Source: Eledone cirrhosa (lineage: Eukaryota). From it: DNA of 64,000 bases. The stretch covers positions 274,598,001 through 274,662,000 of the forward strand of contig OZ024741.1 of the NCBI GenBank assembly GCA_964016885.1, written 5' to 3'. The translations under genes were made by a program, and so were the position numbers. A model generated the notes under the pieces. That model saw nothing but the letters and a program-made list of their open reading frames with translations. It did not search any database and was not told the origin of the DNA. Positions 3,258 through 64,000 of the stretch are shown one piece after another (position 1 is the first letter of the stretch; the number at the start of each line of letters is the position of its first letter).

Positions 3258-3764
3258 TATTATATTTTGAGAATAAACTCTCAGTCGTTTACAATAAATC
3301 AGCTCCAAGAAAGGGGCATTTCCGAGCAGTTAAATACATTAATATATATGATAAACACAAAACGTGTTTGCATTGCAACAGACAAAGTTAGCTATTAATG
3401 AAATAAACTAATTAAAGTGAATACAATTTGTCTGTCTCGATATAAGTCAATAAAGACAAGCTTATATTGGCAAAGGCCGTGATTCCTGGACAAATCTAAA
3501 TTTCAAAATCCAAACCCGCTCTGTAGATGAATTTGAACCTCAAAACCTAAATATGTTTCGCAACGATGGTACATGAATTGAAAAATAAAGAGAATCGAAA
3601 TGGAATTGAAATAAAAAGTGAAATATCCAAATCTTCTGTGCTTATCTTTATTGACTTATATCGAGACAGACAAATTGTATTCACTTTAATTAGTTTATTT
3701 CATTAATAGCTAACTTTGTCTGTTGCAATGCAAACACGTTTTGTGTTTATCATATATATTAATG

Positions 3765-5305: not shown

Positions 5306-5746
5306 TGCAGAGGTTATATTTAATTTGTTGGGATTCAACAAGCTTAAAAATGTTTATAACTGATATAAATCACTCAACAAGTTAGTGGAGTAAATACACA
5401 ATATATTAATAAATGGAAACTATATTTATAAAACCATATTTATTTTATTATATATATTTCAAGGGCAACCAAGGCAAATTATGGTGCGCTTTCATCAGAT
5501 AAAAACAGATTTGTTTTATAAATAAATATTGACATACCCGGAAAAAAGACAACCTTAACGGTTGGAGCTTCCTGGATATTTATTTATAAATATTTATTTA
5601 TAAAACAAATTTATAAATATTTATTTATAAAACAAATCTGCATTTTATCTGATGAAAAAGCGCACCATAATTTGTCTTGGTTGCCCTTGAAATAAATATA
5701 ATAAAATAAATATGGTTTTATAAATATAGTTTTCATTTATTTATAT

Positions 5747-6125: not shown

Positions 6126-6621
<496 letters not shown>

Positions 6622-9688: not shown

Positions 9689-9918
9689 GGTTTGTCAAAT
9701 TATCCTGAGTTGGTTTTCTCGTTGTTTTGATCCCTGCGGCTGGCTTACCGGTCGCAGTCTTCAATTTGCCAAGCTGTCTAAACGTAATGTTATTACTCTT
9801 ATTGAGTGCTTAGCTGCACATTCCGATTGCATTCGTTAGCATAGCTGAACTTCCATTTGTATATATATATATATATACCAATAAAGGACTTTAACATCTG
9901 AAACTACTTATATATATA

Positions 9919-11502
9919 GCCCTGATAGACTTGACCGCAGAGACTCCCGCAACCACTGAGGTACTCAAAGTCTGCGAGGACCATATCACCAGGCAAGAGA
10001 CGAGAGATGCGATTAGCCACTTGAGGAACGGCAAAGCAGGCGGACTGAATGAGATCTCTGCTGAGCTGCTCAAATTCGGTGAGGAGAGCATGATAACGGC
10101 GTTGACAGACTTGATGAACCAATGCTGGAGGTTTGGTCGGGTTCCCCTTGAGTGGTGGTCTCAGAGTGGTGTCATCGTCAAACTGCCGAAGAAGGGAAAC
10201 CTGGCAGACTGCAACAACTGGCGTGGTATCACATTGCTGTCAGTCCCAGGCAAGGCGTTCTGCACTGTGCTGCTGCGTCGACTCTGGCAAGCTGTCGTCT
10301 CTGTGCTCCGGGAGGAACAAGCTGGCTTCCGAAAAAATCTATCTTGCATGGAACAGATCTTTACACTACGCAACATTCTCGAACAATGCGTTGAGCTACA
10401 ACAGCCTTTGGCGGTCAATTTTATTGATTTCCAGAAGGCATTCGACAGTGTACACCGGGAGTCACTGTGGAATGTTGCGCAGCTGTACGGCATTCCTGCA
10501 AGATTCATCGCCATTTTCAAGGCCCTGTATGAAAACTCCAGCTGCTGCGTGCGGACTGAGTCCGGTGTGACGGAGTTCTTTGACATTGTCTCCGGAGTCA
10601 GACAGGGTTGCATTCTCTCTCCACTGCTGTTCCTGCTGGCAGACGATTTCGTACTTAGGCGAATGAATGAAGGACCCGGTCGAGGAATCCCATGGAGAAG
10701 GCAGTTGAGGCTGAAGGACCTGGCATTCGCCGACAAGATCGCTTTGATCGCTGAAAACAGTGCAGATCTGCAGGCCCTAACAATATCCCTACAAGAGAGT
10801 GCGAAAAAGATCGGCCTGAGAATCAACACCAAAAAGACCAAGGTCATGAGAACGGCCAGCAACACAGGTCCAGTGATCAGAGTCAACCAACAGGACCTCG
10901 AGGAAGTCGATCACTTCACCTATCTGGGCAGCATCCTGACAAGCAGCGGCGACGCGGGGCTCGACATCAACTCTCGGATCGGCAAAGGAGCCGCAGTTTT
11001 CCAGCGGCTGTCCCTAGTCTTGTCGTCTTCATGCATTAGCACCAAGACCAAGCTCCGCCTGTACAAGAGCATCGTGCTGCCGACAGTGCTTTATGCGAGC
11101 GAGACCTGGAAGAGTACGGCAAAAATAGAGAGACGGCTGAACACTTTCCACCAGCGGTGCCTGCGAAAGATCCTTCGTGTGTCCTGGTGCGACCGAGTAC
11201 GAAACGAGGAGAGCCGAGTCGTGGACGCTACATAGAGTGGTCACGAAGCGTCGGTGTTGTCTGGCTGGCCATATTCTGCGTCTGCCAAATGAACGGCATT
11301 CGAAAACAGCGATGAACTGGACCCCGCCTGGCGGTAAACGGAGGCGGGGTTGCCCAAGCATCACCTGGCGACGAACGTTCCGGAAGAACCTGATGGCAGC
11401 CAACATCGCCTGGCACGGTCTCGAAAAAGTTGCCGCTGATCGTGACCGTTGGTGAGTACTTAATGCTCGATGCGCCGAACGGCGCGGAAGAATCTAAGAC
11501 TA

Positions 11503-12493: not shown

Positions 12494-12943
12494 TTCTTTA
12501 TTTGCCACAGGGGCGTACAAAAATGGGACATTACAAAACGTGACGGCGGGGGTTTTACATAAAATCTTTAACAATGGCGAATAACAATAAACTATATATA
12601 AAATAAAACAATTGAAATCCCCATTAGGGCGTGGATAGAACATTCCTCAACACCAGGAGCACGTTTTCCCGTCTTTCCCCTGTTTATCTTCCTCAATCTA
12701 CAGGTTTATATACAGAGATAGATAGATAGACAGAGAAATATAGTTCCACACAGAAGCATTAAGCAATCCATGCTACAGTAGACGACATTTATACATAGCT
12801 GTAAATGTATGTGTGTGTGTGTGTGAGAAAGATGGATAGATATGTGAAAACATAACTAGACTACCACAAACACACCTACATATATACACACACACGTGTG
12901 TGTGTATATATATATATATATGTGTATATATGTATATATATAT

Positions 12944-13015
12944 TGACGTAAATGGGAGTCGAACCCATATCTTTGGTTATCCAGACCACTGTGCTACCAT
13001 TTACACCAACACATC
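12944..13015 (-). tRNA. tRNA-like cloverleaf (pseudogene or element-borne; apparent anticodon GGA)
   Basis: Minus strand GATGTGT..TTACGTC acceptor, GTGT/GCAC D-stem, TGGT/ACCA anticodon stem, GGTTCGACTCC B-box; no oligo-T terminator. Confidence 0.55.
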
Positions 13016-13296
13016 ACCCATCTCTTTCCATTCAAATTAGAAGCTACATTCTTAGCGAGTACAAATAACAATGTTTTGAAACAGTGAGCAGGTTTGAAAT
13101 TAGAAAATGGAATAGCTTTCACCGTATTTTTTTACTAAAGAAATTTTAGTCTGATAATGGGGTTCTAAAATTTTAGCCTGCTAATGGGGTTCTAAACCCC
13201 ATTATCAGACTAAAATTTATCAGACTAAAAATACAGTGAAAGCTATTCTATTTTCTAATTTCAAACCTGCTCACTGTTTCAAAACATATTTACTTG

Positions 13297-13298
<2 letters not shown>
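12944..13298 (-). mobile_element. Fold-back element whose tail ends in the tRNA-like sequence
   Basis: Arms ~13061-13132 / ~13228-13297 with an internal duplicated hairpin; left tail ~115 nt; TA-rich flanks. Confidence 0.65.
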
Positions 13299-17700: not shown

Positions 17701-17890
17701 GGCGGTAGATTGGCAGTATCGGTAGAGGGTCGGACGCCATGCTTTCCAGCATAGTTACGTCCCTTTACGATCTGAGTTCAAATCCCGCCGAGGTTGACTT
17801 TGCCTTTCATCCTTACGGGGTCGATAAAATAAAGTACCAGTAATGCACTGGGTAATTGCTGGCCTTGTGCCTAAAGTAGAAACAATTATT
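17701..17890 (+). mobile_element. Full-length OR-like tRNA-derived SINE
   Basis: A-box TGGCAGTATCGG, B-box GAGTTCAAATCC, conserved core, (ATT)n tail. Confidence 0.9.
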
Positions 17891-23087: not shown

Positions 23088-23089
<2 letters not shown>

Positions 23090-23237
23090 ATAATAAATTT
23101 GAAGACTAAAATCCAAAGAGGGCTCGATAAGGATAAATATATATCAAATATAGAAGAACCGTAGAGCAAATATTTATTAAAATAACAGATTAAAGTTTAA
23201 GCAAAGAATCTTTGCTTAAACTTTAATCTGTTATTTT

Positions 23238-23241
<4 letters not shown>
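23088..23241 (-). mobile_element. Family F12 fold-back copy (short arms)
   Basis: Perfect 33-bp arms centred on 23208, plus ~87 nt left tail. Confidence 0.8.
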
Positions 23242-23307
<66 letters not shown>

Positions 23308-23312
<5 letters not shown>

Positions 23313-24148
23313 AATAAAATGCGGGTTGAGCACTCGACTTATCTGAAGACCCTTTGAATGCAGAGTCGAGTTCGATCTGTAACAGATCTTGCCTCGAGCT
23401 GATCGACTGAGAAACATATGTAATATGTTAATAAATTGTGGTTTTATGCATTACTGATTCCTCGTTCTTTAAAAGATATATATATATCCAGGGAGTGTAA
23501 CTTGGAGTTACTGTAGGTTCACCCGGGTGAGCACTCGATGTTTAGGTTCACTTCAGTGTCGAGGTGTAGAGCTAGACAGAGTGTGTTATAGTGAAATAAA
23601 ATAACAAGGACCATTGGTTACTCCTTCATTACATTTACTGGTTGATGACGCGCGTTTCGTCACTGATCGGCTCAAGGTTCGATCTGTATCGATATAGCCC
23701 GACTCTGTAATCCGCGGTTCGTCAGACCCCTTACAATGGTAATGGAAAAGCTTGAGCCGATCAGTGACGAAACGCGCGTCATCAACCAGTAAATGTAATG
23801 AAAGAGTAACCAATGGTCCTTGTTATTTTATTTCACTATAATACACTCTGTCTAGCTCTACACCTCGACACTGAAGTGAACCTAAACATCGAGTGCTCAC
23901 CCGGGTGAACCTACAGTAACTCCAAGTTACACTCCCTGGATATATATATATATTTTAAAGAACGAGGAATCAGTAATGCATAAAACCACAATTTATTAAC
24001 ATATTACATATGTTTCTCAGTCGATCAGCTAGAGGCAGGATCTGTTACAGATCGAACTCGACTCTGCATCCAAAGGGTCTTCAGATAAGTCGAGTGCTCA
24101 ACCGGCATACCGCCTACGGACGCATTTACCTGCAACCATACAACAACT
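23308..24148. mobile_element. Composite ~790-bp palindrome F13 with four HHR copies
   Basis: Arms 23320-23676 / 23751-24108, each with an internal (TA)n; HHRs at 23339-23426 (+), 23644-23728 (-), 24001-24088 (-), and a 3' half at ~23751-23785 (+). Confidence 0.85.
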
Positions 24149-24160
24149 ATATATATATAT

Positions 24161-24271
<111 letters not shown>

Positions 24272-24272
24272 T

Positions 24273-24491
24273 ATAATAATAGATTTGAAGACTAAAATCC
24301 AAAGAGGGCTCGATAAGGATAAATATATATCAAATATAGAAGAACCGTAGAGCAAATATTTATTAAAATAACAGATTAAAGTTTAAGCAAAGAATCGCTG
24401 CTTTCATCCTTAACGGGATCTTCTGAAAGAGTTTCAGAAGATCCCGTTAAGGGTGAAAGCAGCGATTCTTTGCTTAAAATTTAATCTGTTA

Positions 24492-24499
<8 letters not shown>
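24273..24499 (-). mobile_element. Family F12 fold-back copy (long arms, HHR-like CAGAAGA core)
   Basis: Arms 24361-24428 / 24432-24499; tail nearly identical to 23088-23174. Confidence 0.8.
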
Positions 24500-24541
<42 letters not shown>

Positions 24542-25017
24542 TGCAGTGCTTTCTTCATTTCTTCTTTAAGTTTAACAGCTTCTTTGATACTAGATCTGTA
24601 AATATTAGATTGGGAAGGTGTCTCAATGTCAATCTCTTCTTAAGATAACTGCTGACAAACATTTTGCTTTGCTGGTTGATAAGTTTGAAGATGTTACTAA
24701 TTTGGTTTTGATAAATTTCCTTCGTTTTCTTAGAAATTGTTCTCCAGAATTTTCAGACTCTTTATATTCACTCTCTGATTGGGTCTCTGATTCGGAAGTT
24801 GAAGTTGTTGTTGTTGTTACTGTTGTTGTAGTTTGCTCCAAGGTCACTTTTCTTCTTTTAGATGAATGAATAGCTTTGGAACTCTCAGTCGTCCGAGTTG
24901 TATATCCAACATGTCCTTTGCTTTCGACCTGAAGATGATATCACCGTCTGTCTTCACTAGACAGCCATTCACTATGCACGTCATAAATTTTCAGAAAATT
25001 CTAGATGGCACCCAAAA

Positions 25018-25458: not shown

Positions 25459-25693
25459 GGGGAGAGAGAGAGAGTGAGAGAGAGAGAGAGTTAAAACATC
25501 GAGTTAGAATTATGATATAAGTTGGAATACATAAATCCGCAACTTCGGGACACTATAAATGCCTGCCATGAAACATTCCTAGAAAGCAGAGACTGGGTTC
25601 TAAAAAGAGACCCTATGTAAACTTAATGTTACCATTTCATTCTACATATATATTGATGTATTATCAAAACTAGAACAAAGCTTAAAAGAGGAA

Positions 25694-26125
25694 ATAATGG
25701 TTTCTACGTTAGGCACAAAGCCAGCAATTACCCAGTGCATTACTGGTACTTTATTTTATCGACCCCGTAAGGATGAAAGGCAAAGTCACCTCGAGAGGAA
25801 ATGATTGTTTCTACTTTAGGCACAAGGCCAGCAATTACCCAGTACATTACTGGTACTTTATTTTATCGACCCCGTAAGGATGAAAGGCAAAGTTAACCTC
25901 GGCGGGATTTGAACTCAGACTGTAAAGGGACGTAACTATGCTAGAAAGCATGGCGTCCAACCCTCTACCGACACTGCCAAATCACCGCCCTCGAGAGGAA
26001 ATAATGGTTTCTGATTTAGGTACACGGTCAACAATTTAAATCAACCCCAGTGCATTACTGCTACTTTATTATATCGACCCCGGAAAGATGAAAAGCAAAA
26101 CTAACCTCGGTGGCATTTGAACTTA
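25694..26125 (-). mobile_element. Three tandem OR-like SINEs (middle copy full-length, 25803-25988)
   Basis: SINE core three times; CCTCGAGAGGAAAT direct repeat (25789-25802, 25989-26002) flanks the middle copy. Confidence 0.85.
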
Positions 26126-43140: not shown

Positions 43141-44105
43141 AACCATCTCTAATTTATGCACAAGACCAGTAAATTTAGTTGGAGGTGTGGGGGGGGGGGG
43201 GTTAATTAAATCAACCCAGTACTTCACTGGTACTTTATTTTATCAAAATAAGAAGAATTAAAGTCAGAGTTGATCTTAAGGGGATTTGAAATCAGAATTG
43301 TAAAGTGCCAGAATAAATACCACAATGGCATTATATCGGATGCTCTGCCAATTCTGCTAACCCACGGCCCTTAGTGTGATGCAATTATTCACTGCAATTA
43401 TTCAACTACTTTCATTTATGATTTATAGTAATACAGTGCTTCCATATAAATTCTTACACAGTGTATACCTAGTAATACAGGGCTACCGTAGTTCCATCTT
43501 ATATTAATCCTGACAGATTGGCAGAATCGGTAGGGCGTCGGAAAACATGCTTTGCAGGATATAGTTACATCCCTTTACGTTCTGATTTCAGGGGTCGATA
43601 AAATAAAGTACCAGTAACACAATGGAGTCGATGTAATCGACTTTCCATCCTCCCAAAATTGTTCTCCTTGTGTCTAAATTAGAAACCATTATTATTCCTA
43701 GCAGAATAGTGGATTGGCAGTATCGGTAGAGCGTCGGACGCCATGCTTTGCAGTATAGAGTTATGGCCCTTTACATTGTGAGTTCAAATCCCTCTGAGGT
43801 TAACTTTGCCTTTCATCCTTACGGGATTGATAAAACAAAGTACCAGTAATGCATTGGAATAGTTGCTGACCTTGTGCCAAAAGTAGAAACAATTATTTTT
43901 CCTGGCAGAAGGAGGTGAATTTGATGTCAGACCACTGGGTGCCGGACTAGGTACCACTCCCCGCAATCTACTGCGATTGGGCTAGTACTTTATTCATTAA
44001 CCCCAAAAATGATGAAGGGCGAAGACAAGGCCCGCAGTATTTGATTTTGTAGGGCAGAGAGCCTGAATAAATACTGTAGAATTGAATCCTTCGCTCTACC
44101 GACTC
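43141..44105. mobile_element. Cluster of OR-like SINEs (43141-43364 minus, 43515-43696 plus, 43709-43897 plus, ~43970-44105 minus)
   Basis: SINE core motifs in each copy. Confidence 0.8.
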
Positions 44106-44281
44106 GTCATTTTTTATACTAAATTGCTAAAAATTGCCCTTAGTTCTAAAGTACAAAACTATTTGTTATAAAGTGGTTATGTTTATCTAATCTCATAATT
44201 TTATGTAAGAACTTTTGTTAAGTTATGCTCCAAGTAACAGCTTCATAATGAGAAAATTAATTGTATTATTAGATTCCTTCA

Positions 44282-44499
44282 GGGCGGTGGATTGGCAGTA
44301 TCGGCAGGGCGTCGGAGAACATGCTTTGCAGCATAGAGTTACGGCCCTTTACGTTCTGAGTTCAAATCCCACCACGATTAACTTTGCCTTTTATCCTTAC
44401 GAGATCACTAAAATAAAGCACCAGTAATGCACTGGGGTCGATTTAATCGACTTTCCATTCCCCTCCAAATTGCTGGCATTGTGCCTATAATAGAAATCC
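44282..44499 (+). mobile_element. Full-length OR-like SINE with 16-bp TSD
   Basis: TTATTAGATTCCTTCA at 44266-44281 and 44500-44515. Confidence 0.9.
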
Positions 44500-45169
44500 T
44501 TATTAGATTCCTTCAAATTCTTGATTATTTTTTAAATGATTTCAAGATCCGCGACTGTGTCTTTTATTAGAAATATCGTAACGGAAGGGTTAATGTGTCT
44601 TTATTCATCTAAAAATCTTCCTTCATAATTCTATGTAAGAACCTTTGTTAAGTTACGTTCCAAACATCAACTAAATAATGAGAAAGTTATATTAATAAAT
44701 TCTTCCAATTTCTTGTTAGTTTTAATATTATTTGAAAATCATAGACAGAGTCATTCTTCTTAGCAGTGTACTTTATCAAAGTAGAGGGAAATAGGAAAAT
44801 AAACGGGGTGAGAGCGAAAAAGAAAAAAAGAGAGAGAGAAGGAAGAAAGAAATGAGATGGTGGGAGGTGAACTCTACACCCTTGATTTGGCGGTATATGT
44901 CAGCTGTGCACCGTGGAGGAAATGTTTAAAGGATTGTCACAGAGAACAGCCTGCGATACTCAGTGTATCAGCCAGTCCACCTCATGAGTCCCTTTCTTCA
45001 AATGAGATGACCCACTCAAGATATTATGGTAGAAAAGAACAGTCTCGGGACCGAAAACAGCAGAGCTCTCAATGACAGCCAACACAAAAAAAAAAATGTT
45101 TATTCAAAGCCTGGCTTTTAGTTATCATTTGTTCCTCTGTGTTTCATGTGATGTCTTTCATTAGAAATA

Positions 45170-52418: not shown

Positions 52419-52506
<88 letters not shown>

Positions 52507-52865
52507 AAGGTAAATAGAAATAACAACACAATCGGTACAGTATATGGAAAGTATATATTAGGTTAATGCTTGATATAACAGGAAGAGGGTCTTAAGATAG
52601 ATTGAGGGGACGGGCGGGTTGGAATTAGAAAAAATGTCTTTAGATAAAAATAACAGGTCCATTCATGTTGACATCTCTTATATCCAGAGAGTGTAACGCG
52701 GAGTAACTGTAGGTTCACCCGGGTGAGGACTGGATGTTTAGATTCACGTCGGTATCGAGGTGTAGAGCTAGACAGAGTGTAGTATAATAACATAAAACAA
52801 GGACGATATATATATGTATATTATAAGAACAGACTAAAGTTTAAGCAAAGAATCGCTGCTTTCAC

Positions 52866-53440
<575 letters not shown>

Positions 53441-53441
53441 A

Positions 53442-53493
<52 letters not shown>

Positions 53494-53503
53494 AAATCAT
53501 GTA

Positions 53504-53572
53504 TAGGCTGATGATCTGGGAACAGTCTCACTTAATATCCAAAACGGACAGTAAGTGAAACAGTTGTACCTA
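53504..53572 (+). ncRNA. Hammerhead-like motif
   Basis: TAGG-CTGATGA-irregular helix II-GAAA-CAGTTG-TA-CCTA. Confidence 0.6.
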
Positions 53573-53832
53573 AATGACACAATAGTGAAATAAATATCTA
53601 TTTCCACAAAGTTGAGTTCCTTCTCACCCATCTATTTTTCGCTCCCATCCTACTAACCCGTCCGTCCTTTCAATCTATCTCATTTCTCATTCTTTCTTCT
53701 GATAAAGGACTAGCGTCCGAAACGTTAAGACCCTCTTCGTGCTATTTCAAGAGCATTAACCTAATATATTCCTTCCATATACTGTACCGATTGTGTTGTA
53801 TTGTTATTTCTGTTTACCTTTTACATACATAC

Positions 53833-56733: not shown

Positions 56734-57206
56734 TTCCATTTTGATAGGTAGCTTTACGGTATTCTCGGAAGAAGAAGAAGAAGAAGAAGAAGAAGAAGAA
56801 GAAGAAGAAGAAGAAGAAGAAGAAGAAGAAGAAGAAGAAGAAGGAGGGGGAGAAGAAGACGAAGACGAAGAAGAAGAAGTAGAAGAAGAAGAAGAAGAAG
56901 TTAGCTTTACGATGAATTGGTAGAACGTAGGACTATATCCGTTGGCATGTCTTCCGGCTGTCTGCGCACTGAGAAATGTGAAACAAAGTATCTTGCTCTA
57001 GGACACAATACACAATCCTGTCCGGGAATCGAACTCGCAAGATCACGTTTGTAAGCCCAACGCTCTAAGCGCTTAGCCCTGCACCCTCACTCCTTAACCA
57101 CATATATATGTATAAACATTACAAATTGTTTATAATTCTTTCATAATGAAAATATAAATACAAATTAATGGCTAGGAACCTTATAAATATAATACACGAA
57201 ACTATA

Positions 57207-57390
57207 TAATTGTTTCTACTTTGGCACAAGGCCAGCAATTATCCCAGTGTATTACTGGTACTTTATTTTATCGACCCCATAAGGATGAAAGGCAAAGTTA
57301 ACGTCGGCGGGATTTGAACTCAGATCATAAAGTGCCGTAACTCTATGCTTCAAAGCATGGCGTCCGACTCTCTACCGATACTGCCAATCC
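57207..57390 (-). mobile_element. Near full-length OR-like SINE
   Basis: Reverse complement of the 17701-17890 consensus; degenerate copy also at 56405-56535 (+). Confidence 0.88.
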
Positions 57391-57534
57391 AAAAACTTTA
57401 TAATGAACGAGAGAGAGAGAAAAAAACCACCCCAAAAAACATCAATTCAACACCAAGTGCGACAATCGGTCACACACCACAACGGACAACGGAAATTTGT
57501 GATGTAAGCCAACACGCTCGCAGCATTACCGTGG

Positions 57535-58775
57535 GTGATGGTGAGGCTAAAGTGCTGAAACAACCAAGCACCATCACGTACATCACTTGACACCTCCGTA
57601 AGGCCCAGTGATGGCGAGGCTAAGGTGCTGAAACAACCAAGCACCATCACAGGCATCTCCTGATATCTTGGAAAGGCCGGGTGATGGTGAGGCTAAAGTG
57701 CTGAAACAACCAAGCACCATCACGTACATCACTTGACACCTCTGTAAGGCCCAGTGATGGCGAGGCTAAGGCGCTGAAACAACCAAGCACCATCACGTAC
57801 ATCACTTTGCACCTCCGTAAGGCCCAGTGATGGCGAGGCTAAGGTGCTGAAACAACCAAGCACCATCACGTACATCACTTGGCACCTCCGTAAGGCCCAG
57901 TGATGGCGAGGCTAAGGCGCTGAAACAACCAAGCACCATCACGTACATCACTTGACACCTCCGTAAGGCCCAGTGATGGCGAGGCTAAGGCGCTGAAACA
58001 ACCAAGCACCATCACAGGCATCTCCTGATATCTTGGAAAGGCCGGGTTATGGTGAGGCTAAGGCGCTGAAACAACCAAGCACCATCACAGGCATCTTCTG
58101 ATATCTTGGAAAGGCCGGGTGATGGTGAGGCTAAAGCGCTGAAACAACCAAGCACCATCACGTACATCACTTGACACCTCCGTAAGGCCGGGTTATGGTG
58201 AGGCTAAGGTGCTGAAACAACCAAGCACCATCACAGGCATCTTCTGATATCTTGGAAAGGCCGGGTGATGGTGAGGCTAAAGCGCTGAAACAACCAAGCA
58301 CCATCACGTACATCACTTGACACCTCCGTAAGGCCGGGTTATGGTGAGGCTAAGGTGCTGAAACAACCAAGCACTATCACAGGCATCTTCTGATATCTTG
58401 GAAAGGCCGGGTGATGGTGAGGCTAAAGCGCTGAAACAACCAAGCACCATCACGTACATCACTTGACACCTCCGTAAGGCCGGGTTATGGTGAGGCTAAG
58501 GTGCTGAAACAACCAAGCACCATCACAGGCATCTTCTGATATCTTGGAAAGGCCGGGTGATGGTGAGGCTAAAGCGCTGAAACAACCAAGCACCATCACG
58601 TACATCACTTGACACCTCCGTAAGGCCGGGTTATGGTGAGGCTAAGGTGCTGAAACAACCAAGCACCATCACAGGCATCTTCTGATATCTTGGAAAGGCC
58701 GGGTGATGGTGAGGCTAAGGCGCTGAAACAACCATCCACACTCACAGGCATCACTTGATACCTCAGTCAGGTGTG
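57535..58775. repeat. 73-bp minisatellite, 17 units, two variant types
   Basis: Exact 73-bp period from 57535 to 58703; 43-bp conserved part GTGATGGTG..CACCATCAC plus a 30-bp A or B variant. Confidence 0.95.
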
Positions 58776-61421: not shown

Positions 61422-61981
61422 AAGAGAGAGAGAGAGAAATAGATAGATATATTTCTTTATTTACCATAAAGGCATAAAAAGAAGGGACAAACACAAAGGG
61501 GGAGTTTACATACAATCGAGTAAAAGAGAGAGAAATAGATAGATAGATAGATAGATAAATAAATAGAAAAGTAAGAAGGTAGTAGATAGATATCTCTCTA
61601 TATGTATGTATGGGTGTACAAAACGATATATGTATATGTATGTACATATATATTCATGTGTATATGTGTATGTGTATATACATATGCGCGCGCGCGCCGT
61701 GTGTGTGTGTGTGTGTGTATGTTTGTGTGCTAGCGTGTACATACATAAATGGCCTGTCTATAGGACAGCTCTCCAAACACTGGAAGTTTATTATGAAGAA
61801 CTTCCTGCTGCTGACTCACATGTTATTGAATTCTATCATTGAAACAACGTCGAAAATATTCAGGAGAGAACACATCGTTGACTTAATCGACTCGAGTATA
61901 TAACTGCTATTTAGTTTTGTCGACCGTTGAAGGATAAAAAGAAAAGAAATCGCTCTCAGCTTGAAGAGACATTATTTGGAA

Positions 61982-62174
61982 GGGCGGTGGATTGGCAGTA
62001 TCGGTAGAGGGTCGGACGCCATGCTTTGACGCATTGAGTTACGGCCCTTGCCATTCTGAGTTCAAATCCCGCCAAGGTTAACTTTGCCTTTCATCCTTAC
62101 GAGGTCGATAAAATAAAGAACCAGTAATGTACTGGGTAATTGCTGGCCTTGTGCCAAAAAGTAGAAACAATTAT
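61982..62174 (+). mobile_element. Full-length OR-like SINE between ~110-bp diverged direct repeats
   Basis: ATTATTTGG direct repeat (61971-61979, 62170-62178); flanking duplicates 61864-61973 and 62179-62288. Confidence 0.88.
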
Positions 62175-62464
62175 TTGGGAGAGAACACATCATTGACTTA
62201 ATCGAATCGAGTACATAACTAGTATTTGGTTTTGTCGACCATTGAAGAATAAAAAGATAAACATTTCCCCTAGCTTAAAGAGACATTCCATCGTAGGCTA
62301 ACAAAGTATTTGCAAGTAAGGTCTGTAAAACACAGAGATCATTTACATCACAGCCAGAAGATCTGTGGTATTTAGATGTCTGAGATAAAGACCGACCTCA
62401 GGGAGAGATTTTTATAAACGGAGTACTGAGTTAAAGAACATCATCGTAACACTGCCGTTAATTA

Positions 62465-63927: not shown

Positions 63928-64000
63928 TAATTGTTTCTACTTTTGGTACAAGGCCACCAATTACTCAGTACATTACTGGTACTTTATTTTATCGACCCCG
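63928..64000 (-). mobile_element. OR-like SINE 3' part, runs off the window
   Basis: Reverse SINE tail and core. Confidence 0.8.

Follow-up and report, generated by a model that had tools for sequence, protein, structure and literature searches.

How did a palindrome bearing hammerhead ribozyme (HHR) motifs on both strands come to lie between two TA microsatellites, and does it specify an ambisense, viroid-like RNA, as the initial annotation had proposed, or does it record the insertion of transposable elements? An inverted-repeat search of the window (the whole stretch of 64,000 nucleotides analyzed here) places its arms at 23319-23679 and 23748-24108, each 361 nt long and 98% complementary to the other, around a 68-nt spacer. 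This bears out the composite palindrome of about 790 bp that had been described, its total span of 790 bp lying between a (TA)33 target tract on the left (23242-23308, by tandem-repeat scan) and a long (TA)n target tract on the right (24148-24275). The arms differ by eight substitutions and no indels, with six differences in 283 positions of the distal part and one in 74 positions of the inner part, i.e., divergence is similar in the distal and central portions. No open reading frame of at least 100 aa overlaps the palindrome, and an ORF fragment at 24632-24940 has no Pfam match. In the interpretation developed below, the palindrome looks like transposon debris as opposed to a viroid-like RNA, and the locus is probably without function.

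The locus is assembled from two families, A (inner) and B (outer), which meet tail-to-tail at a short TA run. Read from left to right, its first half consists of (TA)33, 12 nt of the short end of A, 17 nt of a segment termed C, a copy of B, (TA)6 and a complete A with its long end; the second half proceeds from the inversion junction through a truncated A reaching its long end, (TA)7, an inverted B and a truncated C to (TA)n. The 12-nt piece of the short 3' end of A lies flush with the microsatellite within 23305-23320 (minus strand) and is joined, with 2-4 nt of microhomology, to the 3'-end motif segment C, present as a truncated copy at 23321-23337 (minus strand, by sequence match). The left copy of B (23338-23475, plus strand) contains an HHR-like core at 23343-23422, found by motif scan, followed by 52 nt up to its short 3' end, which a TA run at 23476-23487 links to the long end of A. 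The left copy of A (23488-23747, minus strand) has its HHR-like core at 23725-23647, its short-end site at 23587-23602 and its long end at 23488. The right copy of A (23748-23939, plus strand) is 5'-truncated within stem II and reaches its long 3' end, where a second TA run at 23940-23953 leads to the short end of the right copy of B (23954-24089, minus strand, core 24084-24005), the inverted arm of an ordinary B insertion. Both internal TA runs had been claimed in the initial annotation. Segment C (24090-24147, plus strand) is a 58-bp, 5'-truncated long 3' end that is paralogous to the long end of A and flush with (TA)n.

The symmetry of this arrangement is broken at the center and at both outer ends. 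The 68 unpaired base pairs of the center (23680-23747, minus strand) represent the 5' part of A, which is carried by one arm only, with the inversion junction at 23747/23748. The outer ends are unequal, there being a 40-bp extension on the right and the 12-bp piece of A on the left. Further, a 16-bp direct repeat (23305-23320, identical to 23587-23602) flanks the extra segment of the left arm; its one other exact occurrence is inverted, at 23825-23840, with no further occurrence in the window at up to one mismatch, and for its 12 non-TA bases 0.0003 chance matches are expected. A 282-bp stretch of the right half is present in inverted form in the left arm, where it corresponds to 23321-23586 plus the 16-bp direct repeat. 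From 23587 rightward, the sequence is as expected after two independent insertions.

Sequence comparisons corroborate the earlier proposal that the two HHRs are paralogous and have helix II segments in common. Global alignment of A and B yields a score of 87, whereas 1000 shuffles reached at most 65, and the interior of stem II by itself scores 46 against a shuffle maximum of 37. This paralogy runs from the core as far as the short 3' end, and both families contain the segments CAGAGTCG, ACAGATC and GAGC.GATC. The alignment score of the long end of A with segment C (24090-24147) was matched by one in 1000 shuffles, and a 16-nt motif occurs in the same polarity 35 nt before the long end of A and 42 nt before that of C. 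Segment C is likely the long 3' end of B itself, because two contigs of sequencing run X1 join 23950 to 24090 on opposite strands. Each of the two families has two 3' ends, the long one about 100 nt past the short one (in the right arm, about 23836 and 23940 for A), and forms head-to-head inversions ending in (TA)n. The inner element had also been reported to occur alone at 52681-52806; a fragment of A does lie at 52679-52807 (minus strand, 86% identical), and it aligns only to 23483-23614, i.e., to the 3'-most 130 nt or so of A, the HHR part being absent.

The same architecture recurs in the window. Self-comparison recovered 15 other fold-backs, 14 of which end at most 5 nt from a run of (TA)≥4, as against a background of 1.1% per position, masking tending to favor fold-back ends near (TA)n; the one counted as a miss is the pair at 3350-3751, whose ends lie 95 and 16 nt from TA runs. 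In these fold-backs, which range from 1756 to 63862, one end is flush with (TA)n and the other carries an extension of 30-118 nt. The one-sided extension is clear in 11 of them, and the 61-nt extension of 5460-5689, which looks like an unaligned arm, was excluded from the tails. The two 3' ends are fixed, since the two copies of one fold-back family, at 6222 and 38041, share one 80-nt extension. Additionally, the short ends appear to have a motif in common, TAT followed after about 5 nt by RCTCK: the latter lies at most 16 nt past the flush end in 10 of 16 rows from seven families, with a background of 3.3%, an enrichment that is not an independent test as the motif was chosen post hoc from the same sequences. 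Family A has RCTCK just after 23836, past the site at which the left end of the palindrome breaks off, and six other families have it after their flush end. HHR motifs with a palindromic helix III number 10 in the 40.9 kb of unmasked window, as compared with a mean of 0.01 in 100 shuffles, and the cores within the fold-backs read outward from the center. Stacking of independent insertions is common in the window, because the TA tracts that flank the palindrome each also hold a copy of an unrelated fold-back family, D. This neighbor is context and not a part of the palindrome; its direct copies at 23088-23241 and 24276-24496 (128 bp, 98% identical) have different fold-back points. A further fragment of D at 52819-52868 again lies beside the 52.7-kb fragment of A, repeating the A/D neighborhood.

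These features invite comparison with the Penelope-like elements (PLEs). The endonuclease-bearing (EN+) PLEs (Neptune/Poseidon/Penelope) and their pLTR remnants resemble the locus in having a type I HHR with a short palindromic helix III near the 3' end, a head-to-head inverted 5'-truncated copy, an optional one-sided tail, an AT-rich or (TA)n target and flank capture (PMC8557442, PMC3846280, PMC11167929). More specifically, PLEs are described as carrying an inverted 5'-truncated copy with an optional tail and a (TA)n bias (PMC8557442), and as forming head-to-head palindromes and capturing flanks (PMC3846280). At the locus, such head-to-head joints to inverted 5'-truncated copies lie at 23747/23748 in A and at 24089/24090 between B and C, (TA)n target sequence flanks the palindrome on both sides, and loose ends of reads run into TA. 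Unlike the EN+ PLEs, the locus has no ORF, a stem II region of 60 nt and two stacked families, the second of which is duplicated in inverted form; the spacing of the two 3' ends, about 100 nt in A and, elsewhere in the window, 80 nt in the 6222/38041 family, exceeds the tail of 30-40 bp reported at one end of PLEs. The minimal hammerheads of PLEs (Cervera and de la Pena 2014, PMC4209133) are similar to those of A and B in their conserved core, short helix I, palindromic 15.2-16.2/loop 3 and opposite-strand pairing 100-700 bp apart, and are regarded as weak and probably dimer-dependent. However, their helix II has 6-8 bp, whereas A and B have a region of 60-61 nt with conserved inner blocks and a GATC..GATC hairpin; the nearest report in the literature consulted is of the half cores 35-50 nt apart in some Naiads (Craig et al., PMC8557442), and HHR variants with a weak stem II have also been reported (PMC3088659). 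Animal non-LTR retrozymes (PMC7229834; 10.64898/2026.07.22.740005) are, like the locus, small, non-coding, PLE-related and endowed with type I HHRs, but they form head-to-tail tandem units with an HHR in each, whereas the locus is single and head-to-head and has no tandem array. Judged by their architecture, A and B likely belong to the PLEs; no PLE ORF is linked to either family at the locus.

The behavior of these families elsewhere was assessed by comparing four of eight listed public sequencing runs, none of them the evident source of the window, with 23660-24156, most pieces being 90-95% alike. Pieces of A stop at about 23953 with varied flanks in 68 contigs of run X1, 242 reads of X6 and 291 reads of X7 (agreement 0.55-0.57). 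Segment C forms a depth peak of its own, terminates in (TA)n and is preceded by different sequence; by eye, the loose ends upstream of it are like the 23830-23850 region of A. A and B are seen in the reads as separate high-copy families. At least nine joints (nine of the 15 listed) run from the 5' part of A to a variably truncated A, i.e., the head-to-head form exists at other loci; the joints of these other copies connect 23685-23749 to 23789-23936, some with short inserted pieces. The A-(TA)-B junction is bridged by no piece among the 16 listed of 5799, and the letter that the window has at 23955, at this junction, accounts for at most 23 of 5865 X1 depth units (≤0.4%). For these two reasons the composite is not an abundant family, and a single donor locus is still compatible with low-coverage contigs and RAD reads.

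The reads also bear on the age of the template. At 15 positions, among 40 of 141 rows, at least 75% of the X1 depth is unlike the right arm; 12 of these differences are common to both arms, five of them in the inner part, and three are confined to the right arm. Both arms would then come from one template already unlike the majority of the run, unless the organism sequenced (organism A) is another species or the copy belongs to a minor subfamily; organism A may indeed be a related species, which weakens the polarization of substitutions. That this one template held A together with B follows from the 12-bp left end, copied from inside A, and from the even divergence of the arms. The earlier view of two related elements joined tail-to-tail at one (TA)n agrees with the layout recovered here. 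At the three arm differences with a clear read majority (23803, 24031 and 24070), the right arm is derived and the left arm has the family-majority letter, a number too small for interpretation.

Inspection of the ribozyme motifs themselves argues against an active RNA. The motif scan recovers three complete cores at the locus, plus-strand 23343-23422 (left B), minus-strand 24084-24005 (right B) and minus-strand 23725-23647 (A), and not the two per arm that had been counted: the CTGACGA of A sits in the unpaired 68-nt spacer, so that the right-arm copy, which starts at 23748, lacks CUGANGA and retains the 3' half of the core only. The left B core combines CTGAAGA, a 61-nt stem II region, GAAA and helix III ACATATGT, with a predicted cut after 23422, and the A core combines CTGACGA, a 60-nt stem II region and helix III ACGCGCGT; both helix III sequences are those originally proposed. 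All three have CUGANGA, GAAA and UH, a helix I of three contiguous pairs and a helix III of two pairs with a palindromic tetraloop, and in all three the 10.1-11.1 pair that closes stem II is a mismatch. In the A family reads, the majority letters give stem II a G-C and a C-G pair at its base (23718, 23767) and helix I a G-C pair (23782); the HHR of the A family accordingly looks maintained and the copy in the window decayed, with the read evidence for B being partial. Rfam RF00163 has no match at its gathering score (34) at the locus. Below that threshold, a compact pseudo-HHR is placed on the 3' half of A in both arms at 23.7 bits, with nothing listed for B; this compact candidate was rejected, its core being CCGATCA and not CTGANGA, its stem II 5 nt long and its helix I not kept in B. 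Folding predictions put the local cost of the active fold at +11.5 to +16.9 kcal/mol, as compared with 2.9, 4.4, 5.4 and 11.1 kcal/mol for four other HHRs in the window. A transcript across the locus is predicted to form a 360-bp hairpin with an MFE of -683 kcal/mol, and in context the cost rises to +70 kcal/mol for A in a 358-nt minus-strand piece and +131 kcal/mol for B in the full hairpin. The HHRs of the locus are thus predicted to be non-functional, with a negligible active fold in the hairpin; these being equilibrium predictions, the left B could cleave co-transcriptionally before the right arm is made.

Ambisense viroid-like circular RNAs carry ribozyme motifs on both strands. A functional RNA of this kind, or a retrozyme-like one, would here arise by minus-strand cleavage at 24005 and 23647, which would free a circularizable piece of 358 nt. 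The two complete cores of the same polarity 358 nt apart on that strand suit such a scheme, as do the circles of 170-400 nt made by animal retrozymes (PMC7229834). We nevertheless consider it very improbable, given the above fold costs, the mismatch at 10.1-11.1 in every core, the differing helix III palindromes of A and B, which by inspection preclude dimer pairing, and the absence of tandem head-to-tail units at the locus. Moreover, the family pattern has no match in viral contigs and two in metagenome contigs, the latter being loci of 62-63% GC that lack TA runs as well as an upstream CTGANGA and were treated as chance. Motifs in both polarities are in any case expected, because any palindrome has its motifs on both strands; unlike in ambisense RNAs, the polarities here are mirror copies in a DNA palindrome, with cores that are decayed and predicted to be sequestered. 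Head-to-head HHR pairs are also normal both in the window and in PLEs (PMC4209133, PMC8557442), and the ambisense reading is not supported. Long inverted arms between TA runs might equally be read as the long terminal inverted repeats of a MITE-like DNA transposon that targets TA, yet this is hardly credible for a structure whose ends are asymmetric, whose center varies as the point of truncation among other copies and whose parts occur separately in the reads. Assembly is difficult for palindromes next to long (TA)n, and no piece among those listed spans 23660-24156, which leaves an assembly or library fold-back artefact to be weighed. It too is very improbable: the arms differ by substitutions without indels, with family-majority letters in the left arm at three of them, the center and outer ends are asymmetric, and the same class of inversion joint is found in independent runs.

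The preferred account, to which we assign a probability of roughly 0.55, is that A and B inserted independently into one TA microsatellite and that a local template switch then copied the outer 282 bp of the right arm in inverted form into the left arm. By extension from Frangieh et al. 2024, the (TA)n target would be cleaved on both strands by the endonuclease of an element, and the reverse transcriptase of that element would prolong either strand from one or the other of two start sites within the RNA. PAc serves as the model here: it does not need HHR cleavage and, having cut the target on both strands, extends them from two start points inside its RNA (PMC11167929). By analogy, the resulting pair of cDNAs would be a short-ended arm opposite a truncated long-ended arm. 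The right half would then represent two neighboring events of this type, the first leaving a truncated A with its long end and the second, past (TA)7, leaving an inverted B followed by C with its long end and by (TA)n, and the left arm would be the short-ended arm of A with the additional inverted A tail, (TA), B and C lodged between the copies of the 16-bp repeat. During replication past (TA)33 or repair of the A integration, a nascent DNA strand may have snapped back onto the A palindrome, taken the right flank as its template and switched back through the 2-4 nt microhomology. A switch of this kind needs no donor, and the right half already consists of two ordinary adjacent insertions. The 12 read-majority differences common to both arms, five in the inner part, count against it, and a late local switch fits them only if the arm was recopied to the center or the A template was already divergent. 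The PLE-based explanation also has to contend with tails of about 100 nt, which are longer than the reported 30-40 bp.

Shared differences are what remobilization of an aged composite directly predicts. In this alternative, 3' transduction, a PLE protein acting in trans would have copied the read-through transcript of an aged donor locus (A, TA, inverted B, C), one strand being primed at the long start of B and the other at the short start of A, with a jump of the latter to C after 12 nt. Both outer ends are in fact family 3' ends flush with (TA)n, the 16-nt motif before the long ends of A and C would make a downstream start site available, 12 differences are shared by the arms as compared with three unshared (in the same 40 of 141 rows), and short captured pieces are present at other A junctions. 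PLEs are further noted to mobilize flanks in trans (PMC3846280), and insertion in vitro proceeds without HHR activity (PMC11167929). However, transduction calls for a donor, its transcription and a jump, none of which the right half requires, and the junction is neither bridged by a listed piece nor frequent by its letter in X1. We regard 3' transduction, the joint mobilization first proposed, as possible, though on the doubtful side. At this locus the local switch and the read-through RNA lead to one and the same sequence; their predictions part over the existence of another A-(TA)-B junction outside the locus.

The value of these observations is in the families, the single locus mattering little. 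At the family level, hammerheads with a 60-nt stem II that are missed by Rfam, tails of about 100 nt and a motif common to the short 3' ends appear to be undescribed. A broader scenario, which we offer tentatively and judge rather unlikely as a whole, is that the host has undescribed, microsatellite-targeted Penelope-type families with a structured 60-nt stem II and a shared start signal, TAT-~5 nt-RCTCK; such shared signals would let a read-through RNA prime at the 3' end of a neighbor and remobilize stacked composites, of which the palindrome would be a captured case. HHR-bearing fold-backs occur every 4-5 kb in the window, which suggests a large unannotated ribozyme load in the genome. The long conserved stem II constitutes a testable HHR variant, and, with their common motif, the two fixed 3' ends would allow the model of PLE integration from two start sites to be tested on natural sequences. 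Any transcripts of such palindromes would be long dsRNA, on which editing or small-RNA pathways might act. This family-level picture could interest specialists of both transposable elements and ribozymes. The work of Lunse et al. 2017 could already hold such HHR variants. In the accessible literature, PLE hammerheads with a 60-nt stem II and cephalopod HHR fold-backs are undescribed, with the supplementary HHR alignments of PMC4209133 and PMC8557442 and Repbase as places that could hold variants; for Octopus vulgaris, recently active Penelope families are reported in a paper from whose main text the word 'ribozyme' is absent (PMC13282606).

Several further features of the window, which is microsatellite-rich animal DNA, perhaps from an octopus, may be recorded here. 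About 14 additional type I HHR-like motifs, belonging to several families with a stem II of 10-55 nt and none found by Rfam at the gathering score, lie at 948, 5262, 5498, 5649, 6014, 11835, 14610, 14719, 39020, 39606, 40171, 53258, 53508 and 63630. The element at 53480-53830 (plus strand) combines the long-stem motif at 53508 with a second, compact minimal one about 190 nt downstream, recognized by eye, and its 3' part matches what comes after the A fragment at 52.6 kb, namely 52506-52670 (minus strand). In the fold-back 13061-13297, within 12943-13297, the one-sided 118-nt extension ends in a tRNA-like gene flush with (TA)n (tRNA-Ser GGA by ARAGORN, 49 bits in Rfam, minus strand); 12943-13297 may be a PLE-type element whose long 3' end carries a tRNA. 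An open frame at 9895-11235 (plus strand, 446 aa) matches RVT_1 with an E-value of 5e-31 and has no GIY-YIG match, and resembles a fragment of a non-LTR, RTE-like retrotransposon. A tandem array at 57533-58771 has a period of about 73 bp with an alternating 146-bp higher-order pattern, and an abundant interspersed repeat of about 170 bp, with at least 10 copies in the window, is found at 1020-1189, 17719-17886, 25687-26123, 43200-44500, 57205-57391, 61980-62176 and 63930-64000.
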